The position numbers were made by a program, and so were the translations under genes. Positions 10,319-32,543 of a DNA stretch of 32,543 nt are shown here, piece after piece (positions within the stretch are counted from its first letter, which is position 1; each line of letters starts with the position of its first letter). The notes beneath the pieces were generated by a model. It saw only the letters and a program-made list of their open reading frames with translations. It did no database searches and had not been told where the DNA came from. This DNA comes from an uncultured virus (IMG/VR IMGVR_UViG_2706794593_000002) (lineage: Duplodnaviria > Heunggongvirae > Uroviricota > Caudoviricetes), in the IMG/VR virus record IMGVR_UViG_2706794593_000002. The stretch is one strand, 5' to 3'.

Positions 10319-10592
10319 TCTTGATTTTGATCGCCGGGCGCTAAAGGAATGGCATAAGCTCGGCGATACCGTACGCCAGCAATTTAAGAAAAAGCTGCTC
10401 GAAGTGATTAAAAATCCACGCGTTGAAGCCAATAGACTGCGCGACTTACCTGATTGTTACAAAATAAAACTACGCAGCGCCGGATACCGCCTGATTTATC
10501 AGGTGCAAGACGAAAAAATCACGGTTTTTGTGGTTGCCGTAGGTAAACGGGATCGTGAAGAAGCCTACAGTGAAGCTGGCAAGCGCGTCTGA
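10308..10592 (+). CDS. relE: RelE mRNA interferase toxin
   Basis: LDFD.RALKEW.KLG.TVR.Q.KKKL...DCYKIKLRS.GYRL.YQV...VGKR...YSEA matches E. coli RelE; overlaps relB. Confidence 0.92.
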   Translation: MTYNLDFDRRALKEWHKLGDTVRQQFKKKLLEVIKNPRVEANRLRDLPDCYKIKLRSAGYRLIYQVQDEKITVFVVAVGKRDREEAYSEAGKRV

Positions 10593-10602
10593 TTGTCAGT
10601 AT

Positions 10603-17943: not shown

Positions 17944-17946
17944 TTC

Positions 17947-19089
17947 ATGATTATTAACTTAATAAGCTCTGAAAAATGTGACATTAAAAGTGAGCCTCGT
18001 TTTTCGGCAATCATTAATATTATGACTGCTTATAAAGAGGGGAAGCATGTTATTATTTCCGAACCTGAACTACTTCAATCTATTTATAATGAAAATGATT
18101 TTGACAGAAGAATAAGAAATGCAGCAAGGCATGCGGAGACGGTACAAAAACAATATCGCAGATTAATTAATGATGTAAATACGTACATAGTTGTAGACAT
18201 TGCCAATAATAATATAAATAAAAAAACAATCAATGAAAATGGTATGGAAGTGATTTCCGTTGGCTGCAAAATTTTTTCTGATAGCGCATCAGTACAGAAA
18301 GTAAACCTACTTTGCGAAGATTTAAGTGATACTAGTTTTTATATCAAAATTGGGGAGTTTTACAGATATTTAATTAATTTAGAAACAGTAGATATTATTT
18401 TCAAACCAGTAAATGGTGGGGGTAATAATACTTACAAAAATTTTCAAAGTATTGTTTCAAATTCTGGCTTTTGTCTTTGCATGCTTGATAGCGATAAAAA
18501 ACATCCTACCGGAAAACAAGGTGGCACAGCCCTATACTTTAACGGTCAAGCAATTCCTTATAATGGTAAGTATGTGGTTATTAATGCACAGGAGGCTGAG
18601 TGTTTAATTCCTGATGAAATAATAAATCTTCTTATAATAGATAAGAAACACAAACACTATGACTATAGTTTCAGTAACAGATTAGATTACCTAAAAATAC
18701 TCTGTAAAAGCGATAGCCGTGCTAAACTTTACTTCGATCACAAAGATGGATTGATGGTCAATGATGTTAAGAAATTTGATAAGTCTGGCCAAAGTTTATT
18801 TTGGGAAACAACAATAAGTAATGCAACAATTTTGAATAGGAGTAAATGTTTACGAGACTTAGAATGTAAATGCAAAGAAACCCCTAAGAAAAATAGTCTA
18901 ATGGAATGCTATGTTAGCGAAGGGTTTGGTTCGAAGCTTCTAGAGGATTCAAACAGTAAACTTAAAGAAATGCCTAATTCCAAACTTAAATATATCCTGA
19001 CGGAACAACTCTTGCATGAATGGATGAATATTGGCAAAGACATATTCAGCTGGGGATGTGCTCCTACAAAGACAGCAAGAACTTCTTAA
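17947..19089 (+). CDS. Hypothetical protein with TOPRIM-like motifs, putative defence effector
   Basis: LLCEDLSD (catalytic E-like), NGGG, CMLDSD (DxD) and EAECL motifs; starts 3 nt after the ATPase; AT-rich. Confidence 0.65.
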   Translation: MIINLISSEKCDIKSEPRFSAIINIMTAYKEGKHVIISEPELLQSIYNENDFDRRIRNAARHAETVQKQYRRLINDVNTYIVVDIANNNINKKTINENGMEVISVGCKIFSDSASVQKVNLLCEDLSDTSFYIKIGEFYRYLINLETVDIIFKPVNGGGNNTYKNFQSIVSNSGFCLCMLDSDKKHPTGKQGGTALYFNGQAIPYNGKYVVINAQEAECLIPDEIINLLIIDKKHKHYDYSFSNRLDYLKILCKSDSRAKLYFDHKDGLMVNDVKKFDKSGQSLFWETTISNATILNRSKCLRDLECKCKETPKKNSLMECYVSEGFGSKLLEDSNSKLKEMPNSKLKYILTEQLLHEWMNIGKDIFSWGCAPTKTARTS

Positions 19090-19133: not shown

Positions 19134-19526
19134 TTAAAAAGACAATATGTAAAATATACCTGCAATAAACCCCTGCGCCGTTTGCATCTCTTTTCTGATT
19201 GTCCCATCTGAGCATTTACGCCTTTTCGCTATCATGCGCAGTGAAACACCATATACATAGTGCAAAATCACCAGCTCATACTCTTCCGGTTTATACTTTT
19301 TCAGCCGTGCCACACAGCCATCAATCATAATACCGTCATCATCACAGCACTGTGGCCGTGATTTGATGGTATACGGGAGCAGCCCCTTAAATCCAGCGGC
19401 AATAGGTTGCCAATCTACCTGGCTATTATCATTGGCGGCCCATGCTCCCCAAAGCTCCAATAGATAGTGAATATCCAGCATTGGTTTTTCCTGCTCTGAC
19501 GGCAGGCTTTGCGGTGCGGCTCTCAT
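19134..19526 (-). CDS. Late antiterminator Q family protein
   Basis: DI..LLE.WGAWA, IAAGFKGLLP, CCDDDG..ID.C..RL and S.GT.RK.MQ.A.GFI.G motifs. Start may be the internal Met (MLDIH). Confidence 0.85.
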   Translation of the reverse strand: MRAAPQSLPSEQEKPMLDIHYLLELWGAWAANDNSQVDWQPIAAGFKGLLPYTIKSRPQCCDDDGIMIDGCVARLKKYKPEEYELVILHYVYGVSLRMIAKRRKCSDGTIRKEMQTAQGFIAGIFYILSF

Positions 19527-19815: not shown

Positions 19816-20409
19816 CTACGCATAACTTAATAGCTGGCTGGCAGCGTTTTCTGCGGCAGCTGGCGTGCTAAAAGTTTTGTTCAGGATGAATTGCCAAAGC
19901 ACATCAAGAGTGGCTTTGTAGAGTTCGGAGAATTCGGTATCGTCCATCGAGGCAAAAGAGATCGATTTAGGCTCTTTAAATTGCGAGCCATCCGGCATTT
20001 GAATAATAGCGTAATAACCAGCTTGAATGGTTGTCCAGCGTCGGAAAGCATCAAAAGATTTAAGCAGGGTTACGCGGTCGGCCCGCTGTTCTGCCAAGGT
20101 ATCGAGGTACTGACGGGCTAATTCTTCCAGCGTATCGCTATGACCGGCATATTCTGCCAAATAGTTTACATAGCCGCGCACCAGTTTCTTTTCTTCAGGC
20201 GATATGGTGCCACCGGAGGGTGTCCAGTAATCAAAACCCAGATTCAATAAAGAGAAGTATTTACGGTGAAACTTTGGATTGCGGACCTGCTTAAAATCAG
20301 CGGTGAGAATAGCCCCCAGCTTGACTTTATAATGCAGAAAATCTCTAACATCGGGCGTGGCCGGTGTCAGTGTCTCATTGCCAGATTTGATAAACGAAAG
20401 TTGTGCCAT
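19816..20409 (-). CDS. DUF1367 family protein
   Basis: L.PATP, RNPKFHRKYF.LL.LGFDYW.P, AFR.W....AG and PKSISFASMD..EF motifs. Confidence 0.85.
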   Translation of the reverse strand: MAQLSFIKSGNETLTPATPDVRDFLHYKVKLGAILTADFKQVRNPKFHRKYFSLLNLGFDYWTPSGGTISPEEKKLVRGYVNYLAEYAGHSDTLEELARQYLDTLAEQRADRVTLLKSFDAFRRWTTIQAGYYAIIQMPDGSQFKEPKSISFASMDDTEFSELYKATLDVLWQFILNKTFSTPAAAENAASQLLSYA

Positions 20410-20482
20410 CTTGCCCCCAAGGGTGATGACACAACAACAACTTAGGTTGTCAGTTGTTCAGGCTGACTTGGTTATTATACCG

Positions 20483-20665
20483 TTAAATATCAGGGATTGT
20501 AATGATATACCCCGCTCTTTCTGCCATCTCGATAAAGGCTGGCAACGTTGCTATAAACTGATCCGGTCTTAATTGTGCAATACTTATTATGTTACCTTTT
20601 TCACTATGAATTACAGTTCGACCATCCGTTGGTAAGTGTTGAATCAAGTTTTCTATAGTAATCAT
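20483..20665 (-). CDS. Small hypothetical nin-region protein
   Basis: 60 aa with AAGG SD. G.I....L..D.F...L..F.E.A..AGY pattern is seen in lambdoid nin regions. Confidence 0.55.
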   Translation of the reverse strand: MITIENLIQHLPTDGRTVIHSEKGNIISIAQLRPDQFIATLPAFIEMAERAGYIITIPDI

Positions 20666-20812
20666 TAAGCTAATACCTTTATGATCTCAATAACCCCATA
20701 CAGGGGACCTGGTTCAACCGATTTCATGTGAATGTCAGTTAAGTAAAGTTTCATATTCTAAATAGCGGATATAACCACATAAAAAGTATGAATATCAGCA
20801 ATTTCTTGTTGA

Positions 20813-22873
20813 TTATGCAGCCATCCTCCAGATACACAGCTCTGGCATATTGGCCCTTACCAATGCCTCGGCAAAGGGTGGCGGCACCGCATTGCCACAT
20901 CTTGCCACCTGTTCAGATTTGGGCCAAAGGGTGCCATCAATATCGCGGTCAATAATGTAATCCGGTGGGAACCCGCTGGCGTTGTAAAGTTCACGCGCTA
21001 TCAACATACGCATACAGATATCAACGATGATGTATTCGCCTACCGATAAAAATTGCGGCCGTGGTGCGGGGAATAAAGGCCAGTCGTCCGGTGAATCGCT
21101 GAAATGACCCACCAGCCGAGCACAGTTCCAGGCGTTATAGCGCTGCTCGTCGGTCAGAGGTTCAACATCAAAATTGTTTTCCACCAAGCCAAAACGCTCT
21201 TTAGTCGTCACCGCGTGTATTGGTTCTGAGAGATCTACTGAGCCACCGGTACCGTAATACTTGGTCAGAAAGGCGTTTATTATCCCGACATGATTACCGC
21301 CGGCGGTTAAGGTCGGTACCGGTTCAGTGATCGGTTTACCATCACGGCATGTGCCGCGCAATTGCACCAGGTGAGATGTACAAAGCGCGTGGTGATCAAC
21401 CGTGGTGATGGTGTGCAATGGCTGGTTAATATTGATGCCTGCACCGGTATAATTGCCGCCATAATGCTTGGCAAGATGAGCGCAGGTTAACTGGCTTTTA
21501 CCGCCCCCACCCGCCGTCACGGTACCCAAAGGCGTATTGATATCATTTGCCGTACTGTTACCGAACTGACGCACAACTACCGGCGCAGCGATTGCGAAAC
21601 CGTGAGTTCTGGTGATGGTCTGTAACGGATCACGTAATGACTGCCCACGGAAGCAATCATATTTGGATTTGGTGCTGGTGTGGTTGCACTTCACCGCATA
21701 CGGCTCTAGCAACAAATGCTCGGCCTTGCTGGTGATGGTGGTTAGCGGTTGGTCTAGCGGATACTGCAGGCGGTCGCCACCGAAACCGGTTTGGCCCAAC
21801 CGCACAATAAACGGATCAGGGTTATCAATAACAAAGCGTTGCAGCCCTTTGACGATGCGCCGCAAGGTATTATCAGCCAAATCTTTCTTGCGACCGAAAA
21901 TAGAGCGTGTTGGCTGGCTCCAATCGATACACTCCGCCGCCGTTCGCCAGGGTTGCAGCATGCCAGAAAGTACACTCGCTGAGTTTGGCTCGCCGTGGCT
22001 TGGCTCTGGCCATACAACCGGCTCACCGTCACAACGCCCAACCACAAACAACCGCTTCCTGATGGTAGGTGTGCCGTAATCACAGGCTTTTAGCTCCCGA
22101 TGATCCACGTTATAACCCAGCCCTGAAACCAACTTTGCCGCCTCAGGGCCATTGATATCTATCTTCAAAAACTCACACACTTCGGTCAGCGCTGGATGAT
22201 TGCCATCAATACCGGTACCCAGCATGTCAATAAATGCCTTGAACGTTTCCCCTTTACGGGCTGGATCTGGTCGGTGATTACCCTGGCTATCCGTCAATAA
22301 TGGCCCCCAGCCACGAAACTCTTCGACGTTCTCGAGCATCAGAAAACGTGGGCGCACTGCCAACGCCCAACGCAACACCACCCAGGCTAAACCACGAATT
22401 TCTTTCTTAACCGGAGTGCCGCCCTTGGCTTTGGAGAAGTGACGGCAATCAGGACTGAACCAACCCAGCAATACCGGCAAACCGCCCGTTGAGATGAGCG
22501 GGTCAACACTGAAAATATCCTCAGGGTAATGCAACGTACGTGGGTGATTGATGGCATGCATCGCCATCGCCACAGGGTTATGGTTCATCGCGATGTGTGG
22601 CTCATAGCCTAATGCTTGCTTGATGCCCTCACAGCTGCCACCGCCACCAGCGAACCCAACAACAACCAGACCATCCTGTAAATCAGGCCGCGCTACCGTG
22701 ATTTCTTTACGCCGCGCCCATGCATGGGCTGTCTGTTGGATATGCTGCGGATTATCTCGATTTAAAAACATCTGGTTCATTTGGAGCAAAAGCTGTTGCT
22801 GGTGGTCGGGACTCAAAGCATGTGCCGGTATAACCGATGAGGCACATTGATTTACTTCCGTAGGCCAGATCAT
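20813..22873 (-). CDS. DNA (cytosine-5) methyltransferase
   Basis: Motif I FAGGGG, catalytic SPDC, ENV, R.RLF and motif X GNAVPP, with a long repetitive variable region. No cognate restriction gene nearby. Confidence 0.9.
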   Translation of the reverse strand: MIWPTEVNQCASSVIPAHALSPDHQQQLLLQMNQMFLNRDNPQHIQQTAHAWARRKEITVARPDLQDGLVVVGFAGGGGSCEGIKQALGYEPHIAMNHNPVAMAMHAINHPRTLHYPEDIFSVDPLISTGGLPVLLGWFSPDCRHFSKAKGGTPVKKEIRGLAWVVLRWALAVRPRFLMLENVEEFRGWGPLLTDSQGNHRPDPARKGETFKAFIDMLGTGIDGNHPALTEVCEFLKIDINGPEAAKLVSGLGYNVDHRELKACDYGTPTIRKRLFVVGRCDGEPVVWPEPSHGEPNSASVLSGMLQPWRTAAECIDWSQPTRSIFGRKKDLADNTLRRIVKGLQRFVIDNPDPFIVRLGQTGFGGDRLQYPLDQPLTTITSKAEHLLLEPYAVKCNHTSTKSKYDCFRGQSLRDPLQTITRTHGFAIAAPVVVRQFGNSTANDINTPLGTVTAGGGGKSQLTCAHLAKHYGGNYTGAGININQPLHTITTVDHHALCTSHLVQLRGTCRDGKPITEPVPTLTAGGNHVGIINAFLTKYYGTGGSVDLSEPIHAVTTKERFGLVENNFDVEPLTDEQRYNAWNCARLVGHFSDSPDDWPLFPAPRPQFLSVGEYIIVDICMRMLIARELYNASGFPPDYIIDRDIDGTLWPKSEQVARCGNAVPPPFAEALVRANMPELCIWRMAA

Positions 22874-23370
22874 TTAGCACCCCCGCCTTTTGTTTTGGCC
22901 CTGAGTATCGAATCCACATAAAAACGCTCACTGACATTGTGCAAGGTAAATTCCGCTACCGGTTTTTCATCGCGGGTAATATCAACATGTGGCGATTTCA
23001 TCAAGCCAATCATACGCATCTGCAACATGCGCAGCGTAATGCCGTGATCCGGATAGGATTTATCAAGCGCGGCAAGAATACCGGTATAGGTCAATGTTTT
23101 ACCCAGCATCACTGCCACCAGCTCACTGGCTTTTAGCCGTAGTGCTGATGATGTGTTAGATTTTTTAGCCGCTTTAGACTTCTCTGATTTCGTTGCTGCC
23201 GATGTAGGAATTACCACCTTTTTCGGCTTGACCGGCGGCGTATAAGGCGCTCGGCATCTGGCGCGAGCCGCCATTCCCCAGGCATCAATGATGCAGGATG
23301 AATGATCACATTTGTCGTCAATCACTGGCCGATTATCATTGATAAAATTATTACAGTTATTAATTTCCAT
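22870..23370 (-). CDS. Hypothetical protein
   Basis: 166 aa; start lies within the repeated CGAGGTATGACCAATG motif; overlaps the methyltransferase start. Confidence 0.7.
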   Translation of the reverse strand: MEINNCNNFINDNRPVIDDKCDHSSCIIDAWGMAARARCRAPYTPPVKPKKVVIPTSAATKSEKSKAAKKSNTSSALRLKASELVAVMLGKTLTYTGILAALDKSYPDHGITLRMLQMRMIGLMKSPHVDITRDEKPVAEFTLHNVSERFYVDSILRAKTKGGGAK

Positions 23371-23387
23371 TGGTCATACCTCGCTCA

Positions 23388-23786
23388 CTACAGGGAATTC
23401 TTGTAATTCGTTGCTAACTTTTGCACCCGCCGACATTGGTCTAAATCAAACATGCCGATGTGGCATTGAGACATTGAAATCTCTAACTGTCCGGCCAACC
23501 ATTCATATGCTTCTGGTCGCTTCATGCCAAACTCTTGCCACAGTGGATCAAATGCGGCATGTGCCAACCGCTTCGCCGCTCGTAACTGAGCGTTAGCCAG
23601 ACGGCCAAGGGGATAAGCATCACTATTTTTGTGACAGCCCACATAGGCCCCACAAGGCGCACATGACCAAAAGAACTGTGAAGCTAAGTCTTGCCGCTGA
23701 GGGTAAATTTCATGTCCCCGCACCAGCTTCGCCCCTTTGCCGCAGTAATCGCAAAAGACCGCTCGGTTGATATTGATCGTTTCCAC
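23388..23786 (-). CDS. Zinc-finger protein (DUF3268 family)
   Basis: CDYCG, C.PC.AYVGCH...PLG.LA, AH..FDPLW and CHIGMFD motifs. Confidence 0.85.
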   Translation of the reverse strand: METININRAVFCDYCGKGAKLVRGHEIYPQRQDLASQFFWSCAPCGAYVGCHKNSDAYPLGRLANAQLRAAKRLAHAAFDPLWQEFGMKRPEAYEWLAGQLEISMSQCHIGMFDLDQCRRVQKLATNYKNSL

Positions 23787-23789
23787 TTT

Positions 23790-24737
23790 TTAATCTCCGC
23801 TATAGGGCTGTTCACCACTTTCGGTGTAAGCCTGTTTGAGATAACCCCGCCAGGCGTTATGAGCTATCGTTTCGTTTTTCATACGTAAATTGGCATTTTG
23901 GGCTTGTTTCAATGCCCTGCGTTCGGCTGAGTTTTTTGGCTCATTACCCTTGAGTACCAGCCGCCGGAATGCGCCTTCAAAATCAATATTCAAATGCCCT
24001 GCATGGGACTGGCTGGCTTTCGGCTCAAACAATCCCTGCCACTCATTGGCAATGCTTTGAGCAATGACCACCGCTGGTGCATGGCCGTTTTCCTTGAATA
24101 TCGCCAGCTGATTGATTGCGCCCATTGCCCCCTGTTTGGTTTTAATTGGTTTTTTTAAATCACAACGAAATTGAACCCACTCTTCCCACAACTCAGTCGG
24201 TAACCATTCCGGCAGTTCGATATTTAACGGATCAAATGTCTTACCTTCCCTTTTCCCCTTGGGGGGTACAGGGGGGTTTTCTTTTAGTTCTTTCTCTTCC
24301 TCTAACTCTTCCTCTGGTAACGCTTTTTTATCCGGTGGTGTAACGCCGCCAGCGTTACCTTTGTTGTTACCTTTTGATTTCGAATCTCTGAATTCTGTAA
24401 CGCGCCGACTGGTAACTGCCCGTTTTTTAGAGCCTTTTCCGTTATGGCGTTCAAAATGTGGGAAATACATTTTTGTGCCATCATGTTTTAACCATCCAAC
24501 GGCAAGCAGTGCGTCAGCGAAGCCCGACATAAAAGTGATACGGTCAATGCCAATTCGGGTAACGCTAACGGCGTTACAATCTGCGTTACCGTCGATGGTC
24601 TGCTGATCAGCCCAGACCCAAACACGGATTAACTTCCCGAGTACGGTATCTGGGTCAACATTTAGGATTTCAGCCAGTTGGAAGATCTCCGGTTTATCTG
24701 GAGTAATCACTTCGACTTTTATCCAACTTGATGCCAT
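23790..24737 (-). CDS. Phage replication initiator (O-like)
   Basis: WIK......DKPEI..LA..L, L..VGWL and F..HNG...KKRA N-domain; LPEWL...W..W...R....K and SI.N.WQGLF C-domain; internal iterons. Confidence 0.8.
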   Translation of the reverse strand: MASSWIKVEVITPDKPEIFQLAEILNVDPDTVLGKLIRVWVWADQQTIDGNADCNAVSVTRIGIDRITFMSGFADALLAVGWLKHDGTKMYFPHFERHNGKGSKKRAVTSRRVTEFRDSKSKGNNKGNAGGVTPPDKKALPEEELEEEKELKENPPVPPKGKREGKTFDPLNIELPEWLPTELWEEWVQFRCDLKKPIKTKQGAMGAINQLAIFKENGHAPAVVIAQSIANEWQGLFEPKASQSHAGHLNIDFEGAFRRLVLKGNEPKNSAERRALKQAQNANLRMKNETIAHNAWRGYLKQAYTESGEQPYSGD

Positions 24738-24781
24738 ACCTACCCCGATTCAGTGCTGCTCTGTAACGCTGATAACGTTAC
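24317..24781. repeat. GTAACGC/GCGTTAC iterons, probable replication origin
   Basis: GTAACGC at 24317, 24340, 24397, 24559 and 24763; GCGTTAC at 24352, 24571 and 24583; plus partial copies. Confidence 0.7.
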
Positions 24782-24938
24782 ATTTGGCGTGACTAGTATT
24801 AAATAGAGCGTTAAATGCTCTCCGTTGCCCTTGCATGGCTTCACGGGTAAATTGCCGTAAAATCACCCGCGCCATATTTGCTGTGATAGGCATATTCCCG
24901 TACCGATAACCATTGCGGTAAGTCAGTTTTTTAGCCAT
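24750..24938 (-). CDS. Small hypothetical protein
   Basis: 62-aa ORF overlapping the upstream gene and ending 12 nt before the initiator. Confidence 0.55.
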   Translation of the reverse strand: MAKKLTYRNGYRYGNMPITANMARVILRQFTREAMQGQRRAFNALFNTSHAKCNVISVTEQH

Positions 24939-25182
24939 GTGGCACCCGCCACGGCTTTTTAGCTTTAACGACTTTAGCTACCGGTTTATCCCGCATCCGC
25001 TTATAGGGTTTGGCATAGGTCTTAGCCCAAGCCAATGCACTGGCAAATGTAGAGTTCGGCGTATCGGTGTAATGCTTACCGCCTTGAATAGCCGCCGATC
25101 TGGCGACTGTCTCGCTAAAACCGACACGTTGCAGTTCATCTCGTAATTGTTGCTCGACTTGTTCTCTGGAAAATCTGGCCAT
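24931..25182 (-). CDS. Hypothetical protein
   Basis: 83 aa; start lies within the repeated 16-nt motif. Confidence 0.7.
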   Translation of the reverse strand: MARFSREQVEQQLRDELQRVGFSETVARSAAIQGGKHYTDTPNSTFASALAWAKTYAKPYKRMRDKPVAKVVKAKKPWRVPHG

Positions 25183-25195
25183 TGGTCATACCTCG

Positions 25196-25636
25196 TTATG
25201 CAATCAACTGCTGTGTCACCGGAATAAGTGCATGTATTGCCTCAGTTGCTTTAATTAATTTCTGTGACATATCAGAGCAGCCCAACAACACCGCACTCAT
25301 CGCCAGCGAGAAATCGCGCAATGCTTGTGCCGCCAAATAATTCACTGAATTGGGGTTTTCCAATCTGGCACGCCGCTCTCCTGGCAATGCCTGAAGTATG
25401 GCTGGAGTAAGTTCGGCGATTTTTGCTCTGGCCTTGTCAGTGTCACTATCAACCCAGCGGAACAAGCGCTGTTTGTTGTTGTGGGTGGCGTGTTCATCCT
25501 CAATGGGCGTGAGTGGAAGCTCATCACCACCGAGATCGAAATAAGCCTGTGCTACTTCTGCCGCGACAATTTCTTGTTTGGTTTCTGCTGCCCAGCTCCG
25601 CAATTCTGCGCAGATGGCATCATGTTTTAATTTCAC
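25196..25636 (-). CDS. CII-like regulator (YdaT family)
   Basis: H..I...L..WA....Q..VA, N.Q..FRW...D and L.PAI..ALP motifs; GTG start with AAGGAGG SD; follows cro. Confidence 0.8.
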   Translation of the reverse strand: MKLKHDAICAELRSWAAETKQEIVAAEVAQAYFDLGGDELPLTPIEDEHATHNNKQRLFRWVDSDTDKARAKIAELTPAILQALPGERRARLENPNSVNYLAAQALRDFSLAMSAVLLGCSDMSQKLIKATEAIHALIPVTQQLIA

Positions 25637-25654
25637 AGTGACCTCCTTATGAAA

Positions 25655-25674
25655 GCTGATTTTTAAAAATCAGC
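25655..25674. promoter_or_regulatory. Perfect 20-bp palindrome, putative operator
   Basis: GCTGATTTTTAAAAATCAGC between cro and cII; the core recurs at 30461-30477. Confidence 0.6.
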
Positions 25675-25676
25675 GT

Positions 25677-25874
25677 TTACTGTGCTGGTGCTATAGGCTT
25701 GTCATAGTCAATAGGGTCGTAATGCAATTCGCCATTAGAGGCTTTCTCTAATCGAACGGCCCTTTTCTCTGGGACTAAATCACCCCAAGCAGAAACCGAT
25801 GGCGGCTTAACCCCCGCAGCTTTTGCCAGAGCACTCTTGGTGCCGAAATATTGAATGGCATCTTTTTTTAACAC
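25677..25874 (-). CDS. dicC: Cro-like regulator, DicC homologue
   Basis: MLK.DA..YFG.K..LA.AAG....S...WGDLVPE.RA.RL..AS.GEL.YDP aligns with Qin DicC. Confidence 0.85.
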   Translation of the reverse strand: MLKKDAIQYFGTKSALAKAAGVKPPSVSAWGDLVPEKRAVRLEKASNGELHYDPIDYDKPIAPAQ

Positions 25875-25905
25875 GTCGCCTCTCCTGTTGTTAGATTTAG
25901 TTAAA

Positions 25906-25934
25906 AAGTTATTTGTTCAGGAAATTTAAGTCAA
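25906..25934 (-). promoter_or_regulatory. pR-like promoter for the cro operon
   Basis: Minus strand TTGACT-17-TAACTT, flanked by imperfect TTAG...CTAA operator-like sites. Confidence 0.65.
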
Positions 25935-25956
25935 GAGAATTTAGAATTACCTAACT

Positions 25957-26349
25957 ATGAAAAATCCCGGTGAACGCATCAGAGAGCGGCGAAATGAGCT
26001 GCAACTAACCCAACGCAGCCTTGCAAAGGCGGTGAAAGTGTCCCATGTCACCATTTCACAATGGGAAAGCAACGACAGTTCACCTTCTGGCAAAAATCTA
26101 TTTGCCCTGAGTACCGCATTACAGTGCTCACCAACGTGGATTTTATACGGGGATACAGATCAATCCCCCCCACCCGCAGTAAAGATCCCACCTGAACTTG
26201 ATGAGAGAGAAGCTGAACTAATTCAATTGTTTGCGTCTCTTCCTGAATCAGAAAAAGAGCGGCACTTAACAGACCTTCGGCTTAAAGTTGATGAGTTAAA
26301 CCGACTTTTTGAAGAGCTGTTACAAACCAGAAAAAAACTCGCCAAATAA
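25957..26349 (+). CDS. dicA: Prophage repressor, DicA homologue (HTH_3, no peptidase domain)
   Basis: GERIR.RR..L..TQRSLAKA.K.SHV..SQWE..DS.P.GKNLFALS..LQCSPTWIL.GD...LPESE...FEELL matches Qin DicA; divergent from cro. Confidence 0.88.
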   Translation: MKNPGERIRERRNELQLTQRSLAKAVKVSHVTISQWESNDSSPSGKNLFALSTALQCSPTWILYGDTDQSPPPAVKIPPELDEREAELIQLFASLPESEKERHLTDLRLKVDELNRLFEELLQTRKKLAK

Positions 26350-26416
26350 ATATTCATACTTTTCAAATTCTTACCGCTAATTTCGCCCTTATTGTTAAGT
26401 TTATTTAAATTTACGA

Positions 26417-26445
26417 TTGAATTTATTGTTAGTTTAAATTAACTT
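26417..26445 (+). promoter_or_regulatory. pL-like early promoter
   Basis: TTGAAT-17-TAACTT (same -10 as the pR-like promoter), overlapping the imperfect palindrome GTTAGTTTAAATTAAC. Confidence 0.6.
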
Positions 26446-26521
26446 TAGCCCATCAACGGCACAACAGCCGCTTAGGTAAGCAAGTTCTGACAATCTGAAA
26501 GCAGATAAAAAGGGATAGACA

Positions 26522-26740
26522 ATGGGAAAGCTATTGGATGACCACAGTAAATATGTTGCACAAGCTAAAGCCAAGGGGGTGAATTTCATCACTCTTCGCT
26601 GCCCAATATGTAATAAAGAAATTGAAACACGCAGAGGAATAGATAACGCAGTTTGGGATTCACTAGCGACTTGCCCTCATTGCGAATCGATTTATCTAAA
26701 AATTACTGATGGTGGGAAAGCAACTGCCGAGATAATTTAA
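26522..26740 (+). CDS. Small zinc-ribbon protein
   Basis: CPIC...CPHC pairs, AAGGGA SD; first ORF after the pL-like promoter. Confidence 0.6.
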   Translation: MGKLLDDHSKYVAQAKAKGVNFITLRCPICNKEIETRRGIDNAVWDSLATCPHCESIYLKITDGGKATAEII

Positions 26741-26761
26741 CCCTTAATATTCAGGAAATTT

Positions 26762-26935
26762 ATGGAGCAACTATTATTCGCTTTAGTTGTATCGGTATGC
26801 CCTGCTCATGAAATTTGTAGAGATATTGTCTATGAAGTTTATGACACCCAACAAGAATGTGAAAAAGTCATTTTCGAAAATAGGTTATTCAACGGCAACT
26901 GCTACCCAGTCGATGCCATTATTCATCAACAATAA
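26762..26935 (+). CDS. DUF1482 (YdfD-like) small protein
   Basis: Not in the ORF track. Translates as MEQLLFALVVSVCPAHEICRDIVYEVYDTQQECEKVIFENRLFNGNCYPVDAIIHQQ; T.QEC and GNCYPVD..IHQ match Qin YdfD; AGGA SD. Confidence 0.8.
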   Translation: MEQLLFALVVSVCPAHEICRDIVYEVYDTQQECEKVIFENRLFNGNCYPVDAIIHQQ

Positions 26936-26948
26936 CGAGGTATGACCA

Positions 26949-27281
26949 ATGAAATTTAAAGAAATTAAATTATCTATTAAACCACTTCATAATGACGTTG
27001 CTCAGTTATCCGCAGAAAATGAAGTAATCGGCTATGCCGTTAAAAATAAAGAGGCTAATTTACCGCTGGCTTCTATTGTTTTGCCTAGTGGTGAAACTTT
27101 AGGGGATTATCACTGTATGGGCTGTGCAATTAAAGCCGCCGCTCAGCATTATATTGGTATTGGCGAAGATGAAGTCATTGAGGCCAATTTCAGCTTCGGT
27201 AATAACAACGTCCGTGACTTATTATTAGCTGCTTTGTTATCAAGTGTTGTTGATGATTTAACCACTCAATCCAGACATTAA
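26949..27281 (+). CDS. Hypothetical protein
   Basis: 110 aa with an HCxxC motif; start lies within the repeated 16-nt motif. Confidence 0.7.
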   Translation: MKFKEIKLSIKPLHNDVAQLSAENEVIGYAVKNKEANLPLASIVLPSGETLGDYHCMGCAIKAAAQHYIGIGEDEVIEANFSFGNNNVRDLLLAALLSSVVDDLTTQSRH

Positions 27282-27376
27282 TAATTGCAGCCAACACCAG
27301 TGAAACGGTCGTAAAACTCAGCTCATTAAAGTGGATATATCGACGCCGAAAACGTAACCGGCATTAAAACAGACGT

Positions 27377-27488
27377 AAAAAAGCCCACACAAGGTGGGCA
27401 ATCTTACCGGCTTAACGTCCCGGTGACGGCAGAGTCAGCGACCAAACCGACTCTAGCGAGGTATGACCAATGGCTTCCACCACTGGAC
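27377..27488 (-). ncRNA. Predicted antisense sRNA carrying the complement of the repeated start motif
   Basis: Minus-strand promoter TTGTCT(27524-27519)-18-TATAAT(27500-27495); internal hairpin AGAGTCGG-N8-CTGACTCT; terminator GCCCAC-N5-GTGGGC-TTTTTT (27399-27377). Confidence 0.6.
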
Positions 27489-27784
27489 GCCGAAATTATA
27501 GCGAGATCTCTATGCAAAAGACAACACTTAGAATCCTGGCTGATTCTATCGTCATCGCTAATGCTGCTAAATCCCCCGCATTAGTCGAAGTTGGAGCGAG
27601 TCCAGACGCAATAATGGGCACTGTTTCAGATCTAATAGAATCCGGCATTGTAGATGTACGTGATTTAATTTCTCTGGCTTTAGAAAAAATTAAAAAATGT
27701 GACTCTACGTCGTTAGTTCATGTATTACCCACAGATGAATTAATAGCACTGACCGATTGTTATTATCAGATTAAAAATAATTAG
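27470..27784 (+). CDS. Hypothetical protein
   Basis: 104 aa; start lies within the repeated motif (alternative ATG at 27512). Confidence 0.6.
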   Translation: MASTTGRRNYSEISMQKTTLRILADSIVIANAAKSPALVEVGASPDAIMGTVSDLIESGIVDVRDLISLALEKIKKCDSTSLVHVLPTDELIALTDCYYQIKNN

Positions 27785-27797
27785 CGAGGAATGACCA

Positions 27798-29951
27798 ATG
27801 AGCTTATTTGTATGTGGGTTTCTACCCAAAAAATCAGCTATGGCAAATGGTGCTGCAGCCATGGCGATTACTGTTGATGCCAAAAATCAAAAAATGGCAA
27901 CAATGAAATCCACCATGTTATTAGAAGGGGAATTCCCCGGATCAAGTAGTAATTTCTTTGCCCCTAAAGTTTGTGCTGATCGTGTGGGTTCCCCTCGCCC
28001 TCCGGTACATGATGATGCTGAAGATAATGCCATATTCAGCACTGAATGGATGGAACATAATCAATGGAATGATGAAACTAAAGAATTTGAACCTATCGTC
28101 GTTGATAATACTGATGAAATTGACAATGTTAAAAACATCTTCGATTTACCAATTAACGTAAGAATTGCATATGTTTTATTATATGGCGTAGAGCCTGAAA
28201 TTGTTGATAGCCATCTATTATCTAATGCATACGATTTAATTAATGATGATGAATCAGAGTCGTTATATCGTGCAGTTATTGATGGCTTGCCACGCTTACC
28301 ACAAGTTAAGCACATGTACATCACTACATTGGCACAACTCATTGATGATGTTCAGGCCCACACTCCGGTATTTAAATCATGGCCGGACGTTAACAAGTTT
28401 GCTGAAAAGTGGATCAACTCCCGTCCAGATGAGCGGGAACACCCTGGCCATCAAGCGAATGAACAAGCCAATTCATCGCCTACGCCAGCGGGTCATCGTG
28501 AACGCGATTATAAGCATGATTACGCCTCTCTCGATCTTGAAGTCGCCTGCGCCCTGTTCCCCAGTGATTATGATGTTTGGGAAGTGCCATCATCCATTTA
28601 TCGTGGCGCTAAAGAAAAAGTAGAGAAAGGTGATGAGGCTTGGCGGCGCTGGTCAACAGCTTTACGGATTATCCCTGCCATTTTAGCGGTTTCCCGTGAT
28701 GATCTGTTTGCAATGATCCGCAGTGCTGAATTGGATATTCATAAAGACCCAGCCAAGCTGAAAGTCTATATCAATCAGTGTTTACAGCTTGATGTAATCA
28801 AAGCCGATGATGTGAAAGTAGCAAACCTTGGCGATGGCAAATTTAGTGTTGATGGCTTGACCAGCGCAGCCAACGATTCACCGGCGAATACCAGCACAAT
28901 CGAAAAACCAAAAACTGATACAAAAGTGCCAAAAGGTGCAACAGAACAGCCCAATCATGTATCAAACATTGCAAATAGCGCCATTAATGATGAAACGGCG
29001 ACCATTAACGCCGAGACCCATACCAATAAGCAGATAGAACCTGAATCACCGCATCCTACCGCAGATGAGTTCCAACAGCGGGCATCACAGATCGATCAGG
29101 ATATATCTAAGTTACCCAAAGAGTCTCAGGATAATTTAAGTATCTGGAAATCAGTACAGCGCACCGATCCCGCGCGTACCAAGCGCAAAGATACGACCAA
29201 AAATGGCAAAGTCATTCGCTCTGTGACCAGCATCAATCCTACCTATCAGACAATGAGAGCCACGGAAATCTTTGGCCCCTTTGGTAGCGGCTGGGGCGTG
29301 GATATTATCAGTGAGGAATTTATACCCGGCATCCCATTTATGGAGTCGATTCTGGATAGCAACAATCGAGAGATCGGGCGTAAACCCATGCGTGATGGGG
29401 ATGGCACCATTCTACGGACCTCCAACCACACTATGCGGATTGAACTGTGGTACCAATACGCAGGAGGTCGGGGCCGCTTCCCTGCTTTTGGTCATACCAA
29501 ACATATTTATCAGAGTACAAATGGTTTCATTTGTGACGATGAAGTCAGCAAAAAAAGCCTAACGGACGCCACGACCAAAGCATTAGCACAGCTTGGTTTC
29601 AGCGCTGATGTATTTATGGGGCTGTTTGATGATGCTGAATACACCGCCGACAATAATATTGAGTTTGGTATTAAAAATGCCAGCACTAAAGCTGATGATG
29701 TGGTTCGTCTGCGTAAAGAGTTAGACGACAAATTCAAAGCCAATACCGAGACGATGAAAACAGCAGTCACGGCGAATGAAGTGACAAAAATCAGCACCTC
29801 ACTAACACGCACCATCGGGGTTCATCTCAAAAATGCCGAATCATCCCATGATGATGAGCACGTCAAATATCTGACCGGACGCCTAACCCGTTTGAATCAA
29901 ATCAAAGATGAGTGCTTGGCAAAATTTGTCACTGAGGGAGAAAAAGCATGA
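27798..29951 (+). CDS. Recombination protein: RecE-like N-terminal region fused to a Rad52/Sak-like annealing domain
   Basis: LD.E.A.AL.P.D......P......AK......W..WS..L....IL..SR block is typical of exonuclease VIII N-regions. C-terminal TSI.P.Y...RATE.FGP.G.GWG and KKS.TDA..KA...LGF.ADVF.G.FDD are typical of Rad52/Sak-like proteins. Confidence 0.7.
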   Translation: MSLFVCGFLPKKSAMANGAAAMAITVDAKNQKMATMKSTMLLEGEFPGSSSNFFAPKVCADRVGSPRPPVHDDAEDNAIFSTEWMEHNQWNDETKEFEPIVVDNTDEIDNVKNIFDLPINVRIAYVLLYGVEPEIVDSHLLSNAYDLINDDESESLYRAVIDGLPRLPQVKHMYITTLAQLIDDVQAHTPVFKSWPDVNKFAEKWINSRPDEREHPGHQANEQANSSPTPAGHRERDYKHDYASLDLEVACALFPSDYDVWEVPSSIYRGAKEKVEKGDEAWRRWSTALRIIPAILAVSRDDLFAMIRSAELDIHKDPAKLKVYINQCLQLDVIKADDVKVANLGDGKFSVDGLTSAANDSPANTSTIEKPKTDTKVPKGATEQPNHVSNIANSAINDETATINAETHTNKQIEPESPHPTADEFQQRASQIDQDISKLPKESQDNLSIWKSVQRTDPARTKRKDTTKNGKVIRSVTSINPTYQTMRATEIFGPFGSGWGVDIISEEFIPGIPFMESILDSNNREIGRKPMRDGDGTILRTSNHTMRIELWYQYAGGRGRFPAFGHTKHIYQSTNGFICDDEVSKKSLTDATTKALAQLGFSADVFMGLFDDAEYTADNNIEFGIKNASTKADDVVRLRKELDDKFKANTETMKTAVTANEVTKISTSLTRTIGVHLKNAESSHDDEHVKYLTGRLTRLNQIKDECLAKFVTEGEKA

Positions 29952-30460
29952 GCACAAGCGCCATATCATTAGCCACTGATTACCGCAAATTGCAGGAAAT
30001 GGCCGATAGCGGTGATGAACTCACCCCCGAAATGGTCGCTGACACTCTCTCTGGCATTGAGGGCATGCTGGAAGATAAGTTCGATGCCTTGATGGCACTG
30101 GTACGTAACACGCTGGGTCAGGCAGAAATATGTGCCAACGAAGCCAAACGGATGAGTGCACGCAAGAAAAGTTTTGATAATCAGGCTGAAATCTACCGTA
30201 AATATATATTGGAATGCATGATTCAGGCCGGTAAAGACTCGATCAAAACGGCGTCCAATACCTTCACTGCCCGAAAAGGGACAAAAAAACTCGTCATCAC
30301 CGATGTGAATTTGTTGCCTGATGAATATGTCGACTCCGTTTCTCAGGTGCAAATTATCACCACCCCAAAAGCCGATGAAATCAAAGCTGCCTTAAATGAG
30401 GGCCTATTGATTGCCGGTGCCAAGTTTGAAACTGGCGAACGTTCGTTAGCCGTCCGCTAA
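29948..30460 (+). CDS. Siphovirus Gp157 family protein
   Basis: DTL..IEG..E.K, E.KR...RK, LPDEY and IK.AL..G..I.GA......L..R motifs. Confidence 0.85.
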   Translation: MSTSAISLATDYRKLQEMADSGDELTPEMVADTLSGIEGMLEDKFDALMALVRNTLGQAEICANEAKRMSARKKSFDNQAEIYRKYILECMIQAGKDSIKTASNTFTARKGTKKLVITDVNLLPDEYVDSVSQVQIITTPKADEIKAALNEGLLIAGAKFETGERSLAVR

Positions 30461-30532
30461 CTGATTTTTAAAAATCAAAACTGAACCGGTCAGCACGTTA
30501 CTATGCTGGCCGGTCATATCGAGGTATGACCA

Positions 30533-30799
30533 ATGGCTAAATTAATGACATTAACCGAATGGTGTGATGAAACGTATACGACTGACAAGCCGACGATTCA
30601 AACACTCCAACGCTGGGCCAGAAACGGTAACTTTTACCCTGCAGCAGAAAAACACGGCAGACAATATCGCGTGCGGCCCGGTGCCATTTATATACAGCCC
30701 AAAAGCTACAGAATGGCGAAAGCGCTGAACATTTCACATTCTACGATACCGCCAATATTGGAGAAGATGGGTTATGGCAAAAAGGCCGGGAAAGTATGA
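30533..30799 (+). CDS. xis: Excisionase
   Basis: L.TL.EW....Y...P...TL.RWAR.G..YP...K.GR.YRV...A.YI; overlaps the integrase start. Confidence 0.88.
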   Translation: MAKLMTLTEWCDETYTTDKPTIQTLQRWARNGNFYPAAEKHGRQYRVRPGAIYIQPKSYRMAKALNISHSTIPPILEKMGYGKKAGKV

Positions 30800-31856
30800 C
30801 GCTAATTTGCCCAAAAACCTCACCTTTAGGCGTGTTCAACTAACTTTCTATTGGCGCAACCCGCTAACTGGAAAGGAGTTATCTCTCGGCAAAATTGCCC
30901 GGCGAGACGCCATATCCCAAGCCATTGAAGCCAATAATTTCATTGAACAAAACTACACTCCTGTCGCACTACTAGAAAAGCTCAAAGGCACGCAGGAGTT
31001 CACACTGGCAGCATGGCTAAAACGATATGACGTCATCTATAAGCGCCGGGAATTGGCCGAAAACACCTATAAAGTTCGCAAGGGACAAATAGCCATGATC
31101 AGCGAAAAAATGGGCAACAGGGTGTTAGCTAAAATCAGCACGCGCCATATTGCCGAGTTTTTAGAGTTTTGGGTGGCACAGGACAAAAAAACTATGGCCG
31201 CTACTATGCGGTCAGTGTTGTCTGATATTTTCCGAGAAGCGATTGTCGAGGGCCATATAGATAATAATCCAGTGACACCGACACGCTCAGCTAAACCGGT
31301 GGTGAAACGTGAGCGCCTGGAACTGGATCAGTATCTCGCTATTCGTGAGGTCGCTGTCACATTACCGGCGTGGTTTGGGCTATCAATGGATCTGGCGCTA
31401 GTCACTGGCCAACGACGTGAGGATTTATCTCTGATGCGCTTTGACCAGATTGTTGATGGCAGATTACAGATAGACCAAGGCAAAACCGGAGCCATGATCT
31501 CCCTGCCCTTAGATCTTGAACTTAAAGCCGTTGGCCTACGCCTTAGCACCGTGATTGAACAATGTAGATTAGCCAGTAAAACAGATTTCATGATAAGTGC
31601 TGGCATCAGAAAAAATAGCCCTGATGGATCACTACATCCAGACAGCCTGACAAAGAAATTCGTAACGGCGAGAAAAGGAACAGATTTTCGTTTTGATGAG
31701 AGCCCACCAACTTTTCACGAGATCAGAAGTCTCGCTGGGCGATTGTATGAAAAGGAAAAAGGTAAAGAATTTGCGATGAAACTGCTGGGGCATAAATCGG
31801 AGAAGATGACGAACAAGTATCTGGATACGAGGGGTAAAGAATACGTAATGCTATAA
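30774..31856 (+). CDS. int: Lambda-family tyrosine integrase
   Basis: N-terminal arm-binding domain (LP.NL...Y.RNP.TGK...LG), TGQRREDL, KTG, FHEIRSL, LLGH and catalytic Y. Confidence 0.95.
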   Translation: MAKRPGKYDANLPKNLTFRRVQLTFYWRNPLTGKELSLGKIARRDAISQAIEANNFIEQNYTPVALLEKLKGTQEFTLAAWLKRYDVIYKRRELAENTYKVRKGQIAMISEKMGNRVLAKISTRHIAEFLEFWVAQDKKTMAATMRSVLSDIFREAIVEGHIDNNPVTPTRSAKPVVKRERLELDQYLAIREVAVTLPAWFGLSMDLALVTGQRREDLSLMRFDQIVDGRLQIDQGKTGAMISLPLDLELKAVGLRLSTVIEQCRLASKTDFMISAGIRKNSPDGSLHPDSLTKKFVTARKGTDFRFDESPPTFHEIRSLAGRLYEKEKGKEFAMKLLGHKSEKMTNKYLDTRGKEYVML

Positions 31857-31872
31857 AAGACCGAATATCAGA

Positions 31873-31970
31873 TTTCGATAAAATTTCGATAAATTTCGAT
31901 AAACAACAAAATTCACCTTTTAAAATCAACAACTTAAAAAGAGACCGAATACGATTCCTATATTCGGTCT
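31873..31970. other. Prophage attachment region: arm-type repeats, IHF site and probable core in the SdsR terminator
   Basis: TTTCGATAAA three times (31873, 31884, 31894); IHF consensus AATCAACAACTTA (31924-31936) abutting the sRNA terminator. The second att copy is outside the window. Confidence 0.7.
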
Positions 31971-32039
31971 AGGGAAATGGCTCTTGGGAGAGAGCCGTGC
32001 GCTAAAAGTTGGCATTAACGTAGGCTTATTCAGCCGTAC
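31936..32039 (-). ncRNA. sdsR: SdsR (RyeB) small RNA
   Basis: Minus strand TTAATGCCAACTTTTAGCGCACGGCTCTCTCCCAAGAGCCATTTCCC...GACCGAATA..GGAATCGTATTCGGTCTCTTTTT matches enterobacterial SdsR. SigmaS-type CTACGCT -10 at 32052-32046; next to yebY. Confidence 0.9.
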
Positions 32040-32201
32040 TTCTTAAGCGTAGTCGAGTACATGTGTTTAGCCAACTTGACAGTAGAAGTAATTAATTGCG
32101 GTTGTAAATTAATTTTGGTGATAAAAGCGCAACCTCAAGGCAACAAAAGTAATTATTTGTTAATTATAGGTTAATGCCCGTAGGCACCAAGAGAGCCAAG
32201 C

Positions 32202-32543
32202 TTACTGCTGACATAATGTCATGGCGCGCTGCTGGAAGGGTTCTAAACTCATCTTGAGACCCGGGTTTGCATTGTCATCCAGTAGCAAAACATCTAGCGG
32301 TTTGGCCAATACATGCCCGGACTTCATCTGTTCGGTCGCTATCTCGTTTAGGGGATATTGCGCTAACGTACTCGGGTTAATCACAAACAAAGCATTACCG
32401 GTACGGCATTCTAGCATCACCTCTTCCCGGTTAAATGCCCACTGCTTACCAAACTCAAACTTACTGACAGTGATGATCTTCCCGGCAGCCATAGCATTAG
32501 CTGATAGCATCAGTAACGTTAACGTCAGCACAAAACCCTTCAT
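32202..32543 (-). CDS. yebY: YebY family protein (host gene)
   Basis: Signal peptide, then [33 protein letters not shown]; canonical neighbour of sdsR. Confidence 0.9.

Follow-up and report, generated by a model that had tools for sequence, protein, structure and literature searches.

We analyzed a 32,543-nt stretch of DNA, here called the window, from an uncultured virus of the Caudoviricetes (IMG/VR record IMGVR_UViG_2706794593_000002). The window is a lambdoid prophage, and its minus strand carries a predicted small RNA (sRNA) gene at 27377–27488. The gene lies antisense inside the leftward-type (PL-like) early operon and opposite one copy of an 18-nt sequence, AGCGAGGTATGACCAATG, which we refer to as the start cassette. 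The cassette holds a Shine-Dalgarno sequence (SD), a spacer and an ATG, and it stands at six gene starts of the prophage with zero or one mismatch. On the comparative evidence presented here 27377–27488 is a predicted, previously undescribed phage sRNA gene with a predicted σ70 promoter and an intrinsic terminator. The results that we computed are the cassette, the conserved RNA module, the covariation of its structure, its strand bias, and the co-variation of both the seed and a hairpin loop with the cassette.

The predicted sRNA gene and the start cassette

A first-pass annotation of the window, drawn from its letters, had read TTGTCT-18-TATAAT on the minus strand followed by a transcript ending in a T-run. 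We found the sequence to be as claimed, with about 112 nt leading from the promoter-like site to a terminator and T6. The parts of the element are as follows.

27377–27488, minus strand: predicted sRNA gene of about 112 nt, running from an inferred 5′ end 7 nt past the -10 box to the T-run
27495–27524, minus strand: promoter-like site; -35 TTGTCT (27524–27519), 18-nt spacer, -10 TATAAT (27500–27495); 10 of 12 consensus positions
27467–27486, minus strand: 5′ hairpin CCAGUGG-UGGAAG-CCAUUGG, whose 3′ arm is the start-codon-proximal part of the seed
27455–27472, minus strand: seed CAUUGGUCAUACCUCGCU, the complement of the start cassette
27430–27455, minus strand: hairpin 1, with the loop UUGGUC complementary to GACCAA of the cassette
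27406–27424, minus strand: hairpin 2, ACCGG-GACGUUAAG-CCGGU, overlapped by an alternative or pseudoknotted stem CGUC/GACG
27377–27399, minus strand: intrinsic terminator GCCCAC-CUUGU-GUGGGC plus U6 (GCCCACCTTGTGTGGGC plus T6)

The element has a predicted minimum free energy of -46.8 kcal/mol, compared with -34.3 ± 3.8 kcal/mol for shuffled sequences (z = -3.3; none of 200 shuffles was as good). The T-run follows the terminator stem on the minus strand only. The first-pass annotation had described a free 5′ arm followed by hairpins and a terminator. The hairpins and the terminator were recovered, but the arm as a whole is not free. A hairpin takes up nucleotides 3–22 of the RNA, which leaves CAUACCUC, the anti-SD portion of the seed, as the only part of the arm predicted to be single-stranded (p ~0.9). 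The predicted RNA has features of the trans-acting, seed-type sRNAs of enterobacteria (Hfq or ProQ class), namely a conserved -10 box, the unpaired CAUACCUC, and a terminator followed by U6. The loop of hairpin 1 (27439–27444; columns 76–81 of alignment A1) repeats the UUGGUC of the seed and may make a first, kissing-loop contact with the cassette.

The Rfam search that the annotation had proposed gave no relevant match at the gathering score over the whole window, the only hits being SraC/RyeA and SdsR/RyeB at 31932–32077. When all 4227 models were run against 27300–27600 with E values up to 10, only RyhB, asX2, isrB and ceN65 were returned, at 14.3 bits or less and E values of 3 or more. A weak test for an operator-like 8-mer common to the cro-cI intergenic region and 27480–27560 found none.

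We then list the six genes that begin with the cassette, together with the predicted energy of the duplex between each start and the sRNA and the length of unbroken complementarity.

27455–27784, plus strand: cis target; cassette (27455–27472) and a 104-aa open reading frame (ORF; 27470–27784); -68.2 kcal/mol
27783–29951, plus strand: trans target; one-mismatch cassette AGCGAGGAATGACCAATG (27783–27800) and the RecE-like exonuclease gene (717 aa, 27798–29951); -36.0 kcal/mol
30518–30799, plus strand: trans target; cassette (30518–30535) and the excisionase gene xis (88 aa, 30533–30799); -37.8 kcal/mol, 19 nt
26934–27281, plus strand: trans target; cassette (26934–26951) and a 110-aa gene of unknown function, start at 26949; -30.2 kcal/mol, 16 nt
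24931–25197, minus strand: trans target in the rightward-type (PR-like) operon; cassette (25180–25197) and an 83-aa gene directly after the CII/YdaT-like gene, start at 25182; -36.0 kcal/mol, 18 nt
22870–23385, minus strand: trans target in the PR-like operon; cassette (23368–23385) and a 166-aa gene after the replication module, start at 23370; -37.6 kcal/mol, 19 nt

The cassette is expected 0.01 times by chance, and none of 100 shuffled sequences reached six copies. Every copy ends in the ATG of an ORF (83–717 aa), and four of the six overlap or abut the stop codon of the preceding gene; the layout is stop codon overlap, SD, 8-nt spacer and ATG. A search of the whole 4.0-Mb genome with the 15-nt core, allowing one mismatch, returned only the six prophage sites, and a control search with the reversed pattern returned none. 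These results bear out the claims that the 5′ end of the RNA is antisense to the gene at 27470, where the element overlaps both cassette and start, and that it is complementary over 16–19 nt to the starts at 23370, 25182, 26949 and 30533 and, with one mismatch, to that at 27798.

Predicted duplex energies for the five trans starts range from -30.2 to -37.8 kcal/mol. Among the 144 non-target starts of the 150 ORF starts tested, the best was 1723 on the minus strand at -30.9 kcal/mol, followed by one at -26.0 kcal/mol. Although 1723 scores better than the start at 26949, we rejected it as a seventh target; it has only 4 nt in common with the cassette, around the ATG.

In relatives the cis cassette heads only an upstream ORF of 8–14 codons, and the conserved protein begins at the equivalent of ATG 27512; in many of them this short ORF stops just before the start of the next gene. 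The cassette ATG at 27470 adds 14 in-frame codons compared with the start of the relatives, which is equivalent to ATG 27512 (MQKTT...). For the 717-aa gene at 27798 we rejected an identity as the replication initiator: its product is a RecE-like exonuclease, and the initiator is encoded at 23790–24737 on the minus strand. The 166-aa target protein is 51% identical to gp16 of Pectobacterium phage ZF40, which bears a cassette of the ZF40 class described below. No antirepressor family matched among 19 ORFs scanned.

The other features of the prophage that frame these genes are listed here.

25957–26349, plus strand: cI-like repressor gene, facing the cro-like gene
25677–25874, minus strand: cro-like gene
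Minus strand: PR-like operon, with the CII/YdaT-like gene, the replication initiator gene, a DUF3268 gene and a gene for a 686-aa DNA methyltransferase
23790–24737, minus strand: replication initiator gene
From 26522, plus strand: PL-like operon, with small genes, the RecE-like exonuclease gene and a Gp157/Gam-like gene, then xis and int
30774–31856, plus strand: int
31932–32077: bidirectional SraC/RyeA and SdsR/RyeB sRNA locus (Rfam, 170.7 and 108.5 bits)

The int end of the prophage adjoins the SraC/RyeA-SdsR/RyeB locus, which we take to be a known prophage insertion hot spot in Salmonella, and a DUF2511 gene (32202–32543, minus strand) comes next. Elsewhere, a two-gene insert of low GC content (32–39%; 16324–19089, plus strand) adjoins the Q antiterminator gene (19134–19526). 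One of its genes encodes a 539-aa AAA_15/AAA_21 ATPase that matches the defence models NsnB, PDC-M55A and AriA, and the other a 380-aa protein without a family match. The insert is a candidate anti-phage defence moron.

Conservation of the RNA and co-variation with the cassette

Complementarity to the other starts follows trivially for any sequence that lies opposite one copy of a shared cassette, so the real question is whether a discrete RNA gene exists at 27377–27488. The comparative sequence data answer that it does. When 400 genomes of the family were searched, a block of about 120 nt alone was strongly matched in seven further genomes, and an eighth matched its 3′ half only. Each match extends from the -10 box or the predicted 5′ end as far as the T-run. 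The block is conserved at 81–100% identity, and the flanks and gene contexts differ. Pattern scans located the block in 34 IMG/VR contigs. The 3′ module is present in 67 IMG/VR contigs and in 17 named genome contigs, from Yersinia (including Yersinia frederiksenii, with a prophage in strain ATCC 33641), Serratia, Rahnella, Rouxiella, Erwinia, Izhakiella and Mixta. Two further elements, of the class called B below, are on contigs labeled Sphingomonas sp. (42 kb) and Streptomyces sp. (1.4 kb), both labels in the same NPDC naming style. Their sequence is identical to the Serratia type, and assembly contamination is therefore likely.

In near mode, a 1.7-kb BLAST query found nothing among 50,697 GenBank phage records and 5,426 Escherichia coli genomes, and the element alone in distant mode gave no match in the 5,426 complete E. 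coli genomes. Among GenBank phages the element alone matched Aeromonas phage pAEv1818 over its 3′ half and Pseudomonas phage DDSR119 over 37 nt. The covariance model R1, run against 150 genomes of the class (one per family), gave matches of at most 31 bits outside the genome that holds the window. The two that we inspected were 3′ halves of tRNA genes with terminators after them and were rejected as homologs. Hairpin 1 plus the terminator resembles a T-arm plus a terminator, a source of false matches for this model.

We aligned 42 distinct elements. The -10 hexamer is kept in all 42 (TATAAT in 24, TATACT in 10, TAGAAT in 5 and TACAAT in 3), and upstream of it there is no conservation between classes. 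A five-helix structure is paired in 96.1% of 1343 cells, and 13 of its 32 pairs show changes on both sides. These values were not reached in any of 500 shuffles, and slid controls were paired in 29–42% of cells. RNAalifold independently recovered the three 3′ helices, that is hairpin 1, hairpin 2 and the terminator. The 5′ hairpin (helix 1) is paired in 87.1% of cells, with a G-C to A-U change in three sequences, and class B has a different 5′ hairpin fold. Helix 2, in hairpin 1, has 10 pairs, 8 of them changed on both sides, and is 97.9% paired. Helices 3 and 4, in the hairpin 2 region, are 100% and 97.6% paired; here CCGG/CCGG becomes CCAG/CUGG in one sequence and CGUC/GACG becomes CACC/GGUG in two. 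The terminator (helix 5) is 100% paired, with G-C to A-U in eight sequences. We found 151 G.U cells compared with only 9 A.C cells, and the structure was paired in 96.1% of cells when read on the minus strand versus 85.6% on the plus strand. This indicates that the structure fits the minus strand better.

For the comparison of seeds and cassettes, 94 records were reduced to 82 distinct neighborhoods, and four of less than 10 kb were left out. This gave 78 loci, including two from one genome (G123) that lie outside the classes. The three largest classes are these.

Class A (the window): seed CAUUGGUCAUACCUCG, cassette CGAGGTATGACCAATG; 36 loci; trans cassettes 172 A, 0 A′ and 0 B
Class A′: seed CAUUGGUCAUGCCUCG, cassette CGAGGCATGACCAATG; 12 loci; trans cassettes 35 A′, 0 A and 0 B
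Class B, including Aeromonas phage pAEv1818: seed CAUUGGUU(U)AUGCUCCGG, cassette GGAGCATAA(A)CCAATG; 28 loci; trans cassettes 87 B, 2 A and 0 A′

With two pairs from more distant phages there are five classes, which differ mainly in the 4–5 nt between the SD and a constant ACCAATG (spacers TATG, CATG, CATAA, CAAG and AAAG). Class by class, the same variant is found in the seed of a phage and in all of its cassettes, the exceptions being two class-B phages and G123. RNA-target covariation in related prophages, the check that the annotation had called for, is thus present: seed and cassettes co-vary in five classes. For pairing as predicted from sequence, this co-change is the decisive evidence. 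The loop of hairpin 1 also tracks the cassette. It is TTGGTC in 35 of 42 elements, with GACCAA in the cassette, and GTGGTT in 7 of 42, all of class B, with AACCAA in the cassette. From class to class the targets stand at the same places, namely xis, the exonuclease gene or recT, the gene following cII and the one following the replication module. The genes after cII in the window and in ZF40 encode non-homologous proteins, yet each carries the cassette of its own class.

Two classes can occur side by side. Serratia fonticola RP0009 has a class-A and a class-B prophage in one genome (L193/L194), and in Serratia montpellierensis classes A′ and B are about 40 kb apart on one contig (L198/L202).

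The two more distant phages lie outside the reach of BLAST and were found through the exonuclease protein. In a search for close relatives lacking the sRNA, all 20 loci located with this protein carried it, and none was available for contrast. In ZF40 the cassette is CGAGGCAAGACCAATG, at xis, gp05, the exonuclease gene, gp13 (after cII), gp16 (after the helicase gene) and gp18. Opposite its leftward operon we found a TATAAT box, a 5′ hairpin, the seed UAUUGGUCUUGCCUUG, more hairpins and a terminator (fold z = -4.7). Among the 24 annotated starts of ZF40, six are predicted to pair with the seed, at energies between -30 and -38 kcal/mol; the next best reaches -22.5 kcal/mol. The strand opposite this seed reads CAAGGCAAGACCAATA, which has no ATG and a weakened SD, and the seed uses two G.U pairs in its pairing with the six real starts. 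Since the opposite strand has no start codon, the ZF40 seed is more than a passive antisense copy of a start. The annotation of ZF40 gp08 (4919–5407) begins at GTG 5407 and runs across the sRNA candidate; its true start looks like ATG 5212, which has the SD GAGGAA.

In Stenotrophomonas phage vB_SmeS_BUCT708 the cassette GAGGAAAGACCAATG is at 5 of 18 starts, in the same positions, and its antisense RNA combines the seed CAUUGGUCUUUCCUC with the terminator of classes A′ and B. The hairpins of ZF40 and BUCT708 also show UUUGGUCG. The PL leader of BUCT708 (about 10517–11200, plus strand) has several start-less GGTCTTTCC cores within a GTCTTTCC..G..GTCA repeat, and the PL leader of ZF40 has one cassette-like core, TGGTCTTGCCTTGC (6066–6079, plus strand), that likewise lacks a start codon. 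No such start-less core was found in the window. These cores may serve the sRNA as decoys or as attenuation sites, or be operators for a protein. As a negative control, the E. coli lambdoid phage Evi, which has a RecE-like gene, had no start k-mer repeated more than twice.

Proposed mechanism and alternative explanations

From these comparisons we infer transcription of the RNA, repression of its targets, a role in immunity or timing, and effects between phages. We consider it likely that the RNA represses the cassette-bearing starts, in trans as well as in cis. A promoter of its own on the minus strand would drive constitutive synthesis of an sRNA whose anti-SD/anti-AUG seed is exposed between the 5′ hairpin and hairpin 1. 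The exposed anti-SD stretch would nucleate pairing, which would then zip through the 5′ hairpin and cover the SD and AUG. Since the pairing covers both, binding of the 30S subunit should be blocked, and cleavage of the duplex is possible. The targets would be one gene or leader ORF in cis and five in trans, namely xis, the RecE-like exonuclease gene and three small genes, spread over both early operons. In relatives with a short upstream ORF in cis, the block would also shut the translationally coupled downstream gene. During lysogeny the RNA would shut off any leakage from the excision, recombination and accessory early genes. Upon induction, head-on transcription from PL, together with the fully complementary PL mRNA acting as a sponge, would lower and titrate the RNA, so that repression is lifted above a threshold. 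That one guide-like RNA is matched to the start cassettes of both early operons, as first proposed, is supported by the conserved module and by the joint switching of seed and cassettes.

Because there are at least five matched seed-cassette classes, the pair may define RNA-based specificity groups among related or co-resident prophages. Put more broadly, temperate phages of Enterobacterales, Aeromonas and Stenotrophomonas may share a programmable start-cassette code, in which the sRNA and the SD-to-AUG spacers (UAUG, CAUG, CAUAA, CAAG and AAAG) of four to seven early genes co-evolve as orthogonal classes. Such a code would gate translation and set RNA-defined immunity or incompatibility groups, with co-resident prophages avoiding or exploiting cross-repression. 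We hold this broader reading tentatively, as a real possibility.

Several observations weigh against repression in cis and trans. The promoter match is not above chance when taken alone, with 17 promoter-like sites in 20000–32543 compared with 22.0 ± 4.0 in shuffles; its support is its conservation. The predicted 5′ hairpin locks 7 of the 18 seed bases. The start at 27798 pairs over 8 + 10 nt around a mismatch that is next to the SD. Four of the six target proteins have no known function, and the logic of the regulon is therefore unclear. In an RNA-library run (X1) one 3,875-nt contig spans the whole 1-kb stretch around the element, and neither strand, ends nor RNA origin can be read from it. 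Three raw-read runs with the same species label (X11–X13) gave 0 reads on the stretch, and those strains thus apparently lack the prophage. In two class-B Serratia phages (L191, L193) the xis cassette, about 4.7 kb away from the sRNA, is of class A. In G123 the seeds of the two loci (L059, L060) are the variants UCAUUUGUCAUGCCUCGC and UCAUUGAUCAUGCCUCGC, and neither has more than one matching start. We found no multi-copy cassette in either locus, and the ORFs behind their cis cassettes have 127 and 130 aa. These loci may represent prophages in decay or a form that acts only in cis. Since the loci are related, the co-variation amounts to about five events, not 78, and gene conversion among cassettes, including the copy under the seed, could be a source of the concerted change.

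The alternative that survives best, although we think it unlikely, is an antisense RNA acting only in cis on the opposite gene or leader ORF, as P22 sar/sas or lambda OOP do. The cassette would then be retained for some other purpose, for example as a strong ribosome-binding site or as a recombination linker where modules join. Consistent with this, one cassette lies entirely opposite the RNA, a good match in the two G123 loci is confined to the cis site, and the 8–14-codon ORF of the relatives, stopping just before the next start, fits translational coupling. Non-homologous genes in the same position share the cassette, as a module linker would have it. However, neither a linker nor a strong ribosome-binding site predicts a joint switch of the seed and all copies in five classes, and the ZF40 seed, opposite a strand without a start codon, matches six starts elsewhere. 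Perfect pairing over 16–19 nt across SD and AUG would in any case act in trans whenever the RNA is present.

Less probable still is that the cassette is primary and is read by a translational repressor protein of the phage or by the ribosome, its copies being homogenized by gene conversion and the antisense transcript being incidental. Start sequences without a known RNA partner do exist, in cluster K mycobacteriophages (PMC3203893). The cassette also overlaps the upstream stop codon and keeps SD, 8-nt spacer and ATG, and its constant part ACCAATG is common to all five classes. This explanation leaves unexplained the conserved -10 box, the covarying hairpins, the strand-specific G.U pairs and the terminator, as well as the co-variation of loop and cassette and the retention of the seed opposite a lost start in ZF40.

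Two further explanations are very improbable. The hairpins fold on both strands and the element sits in an intercistronic gap of a plus-strand operon, as would be expected of a processing site, antitermination site or leader structure in the PL-operon mRNA with a chance promoter and terminator on the minus strand, but the excess of G.U over A.C cells (151 versus 9), the better pairing on the minus strand (96.1% versus 85.6%), the T-run found after the stem on that strand only and the -10 hexamer retained on it in 42 of 42 elements all favor the minus strand. Type I toxin-antitoxin pairs with an antisense RNA over the toxin start are common in prophages, and the cis ORF does start within the RNA; however, inspection of the translation showed the 104-aa product to be acidic and without the hydrophobic stretch typical of type I toxins, the cis ORF of relatives has only 8–14 codons or is absent (ZF40), and a role as antitoxin leaves five or more further matched starts unexplained.

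Relation to known systems

The control of lysis and lysogeny is taught as a matter of protein repressors, and RNA immunity is known in a few cases (P1 c4, P4 CI), on one transcript each. Here a single sRNA appears to be matched to a purpose-built cassette before selected genes in both early operons. Seed and cassette have been re-tuned to each other at least five times, and the system spans at least three orders of Gammaproteobacteria. If the RNA represses these starts, it would add a translational layer to prophage maintenance and to the timing of induction, account for the identical start regions of unrelated early genes, and suggest RNA-defined specificity groups among prophages. It would also offer natural orthogonal sRNA-cassette pairs for the synthetic control of translation. 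ZF40 is a published model phage in which the pairing is open to direct test; the words 'motif', 'antisense' and 'small RNA' do not occur in its genome paper. In a literature search, with supplements and subscription journals outside its range, we found no paper describing this RNA or cassette. This, together with the Rfam result, agrees with the first-pass view that the system had not been described.

The closest system by logic is the c4 RNA of phages P1 and P7, which confers RNA immunity (immI), blocks a ribosome-binding region and coupled translation, and shows matched specificity differences between RNA and target. The c4 antisense RNA is discussed in a review (PMC12197685). The likeness lies in short complementary stretches, coupled translation and matched changes of specificity. 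In contrast, c4 is cut from the same transcript as its two sites upstream of icd/ant, whereas the sRNA described here would have its own promoter on the opposite strand and four to seven gene starts in two divergent operons as targets. The sRNA also has no match to an Rfam model of the C4 family, and its targets are six separate starts rather than icd/ant sites.

The CI RNA of P4 confers prophage immunity through premature termination of transcription, acting through sites in the leader of one operon. Repeated complementary sites and RNA-based immunity are features it would share with the system described here. In P4 the sites are in the leader of one operon, whereas here each site is the SD-AUG cassette of an individual gene; ZF40 and BUCT708, but not the window, have additional cassette-like cores in the PL leader.

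The small RNAs sar and sas of P22 and OOP of lambda (Ranade and Poteete 1993 and Wu et al. 1987, both cited in PMC12197685) are antisense to an early operon and act strictly in cis on one gene, sas within the PL operon. Like the sRNA described here they are small antisense RNAs against a lambdoid early operon, over a start region or a gene end, and the sRNA likewise lies opposite one target gene to which it is fully complementary (27455–27472). They have no shared cassette at other genes. In contrast, the five further perfect or near-perfect sites found here and the class co-variation argue for action in trans.

The RegA protein of T4 shuts off translation of many early genes at their initiation regions through loose sequence recognition. 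It is a protein analogue of the proposed function, which here would be carried out by an RNA with exact pairing over 16–19 nt. The start-associated sequences of cluster K mycobacteriophages are alike in pattern only: the motif differs, the hosts are Actinobacteria, and they are not the same family. For these sequences we know of no complementary RNA. They are conserved short sequences at the starts of a subset of phage genes (PMC3203893).

The sRNAs of E. coli prophages, such as DicF, svsR and Pas, are also encoded by lambdoid prophages and have a scaffold that ends in a terminator. The svsR gene is located at the 3′ end of cI, and no pairing target is known for its RNA (PMC12803456); the Pas sRNAs are presented as E. 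coli prophage sRNAs (10.64898/2026.05.13.724894). These RNAs act on host genes and are unrelated; the perfect targets found here are all inside the phage, and the element is absent from the 5,426 E. coli genomes. Thus, control by antisense and seed-type sRNAs is known in phages, but a dedicated start cassette that co-evolves with its sRNA is an unusual architecture.

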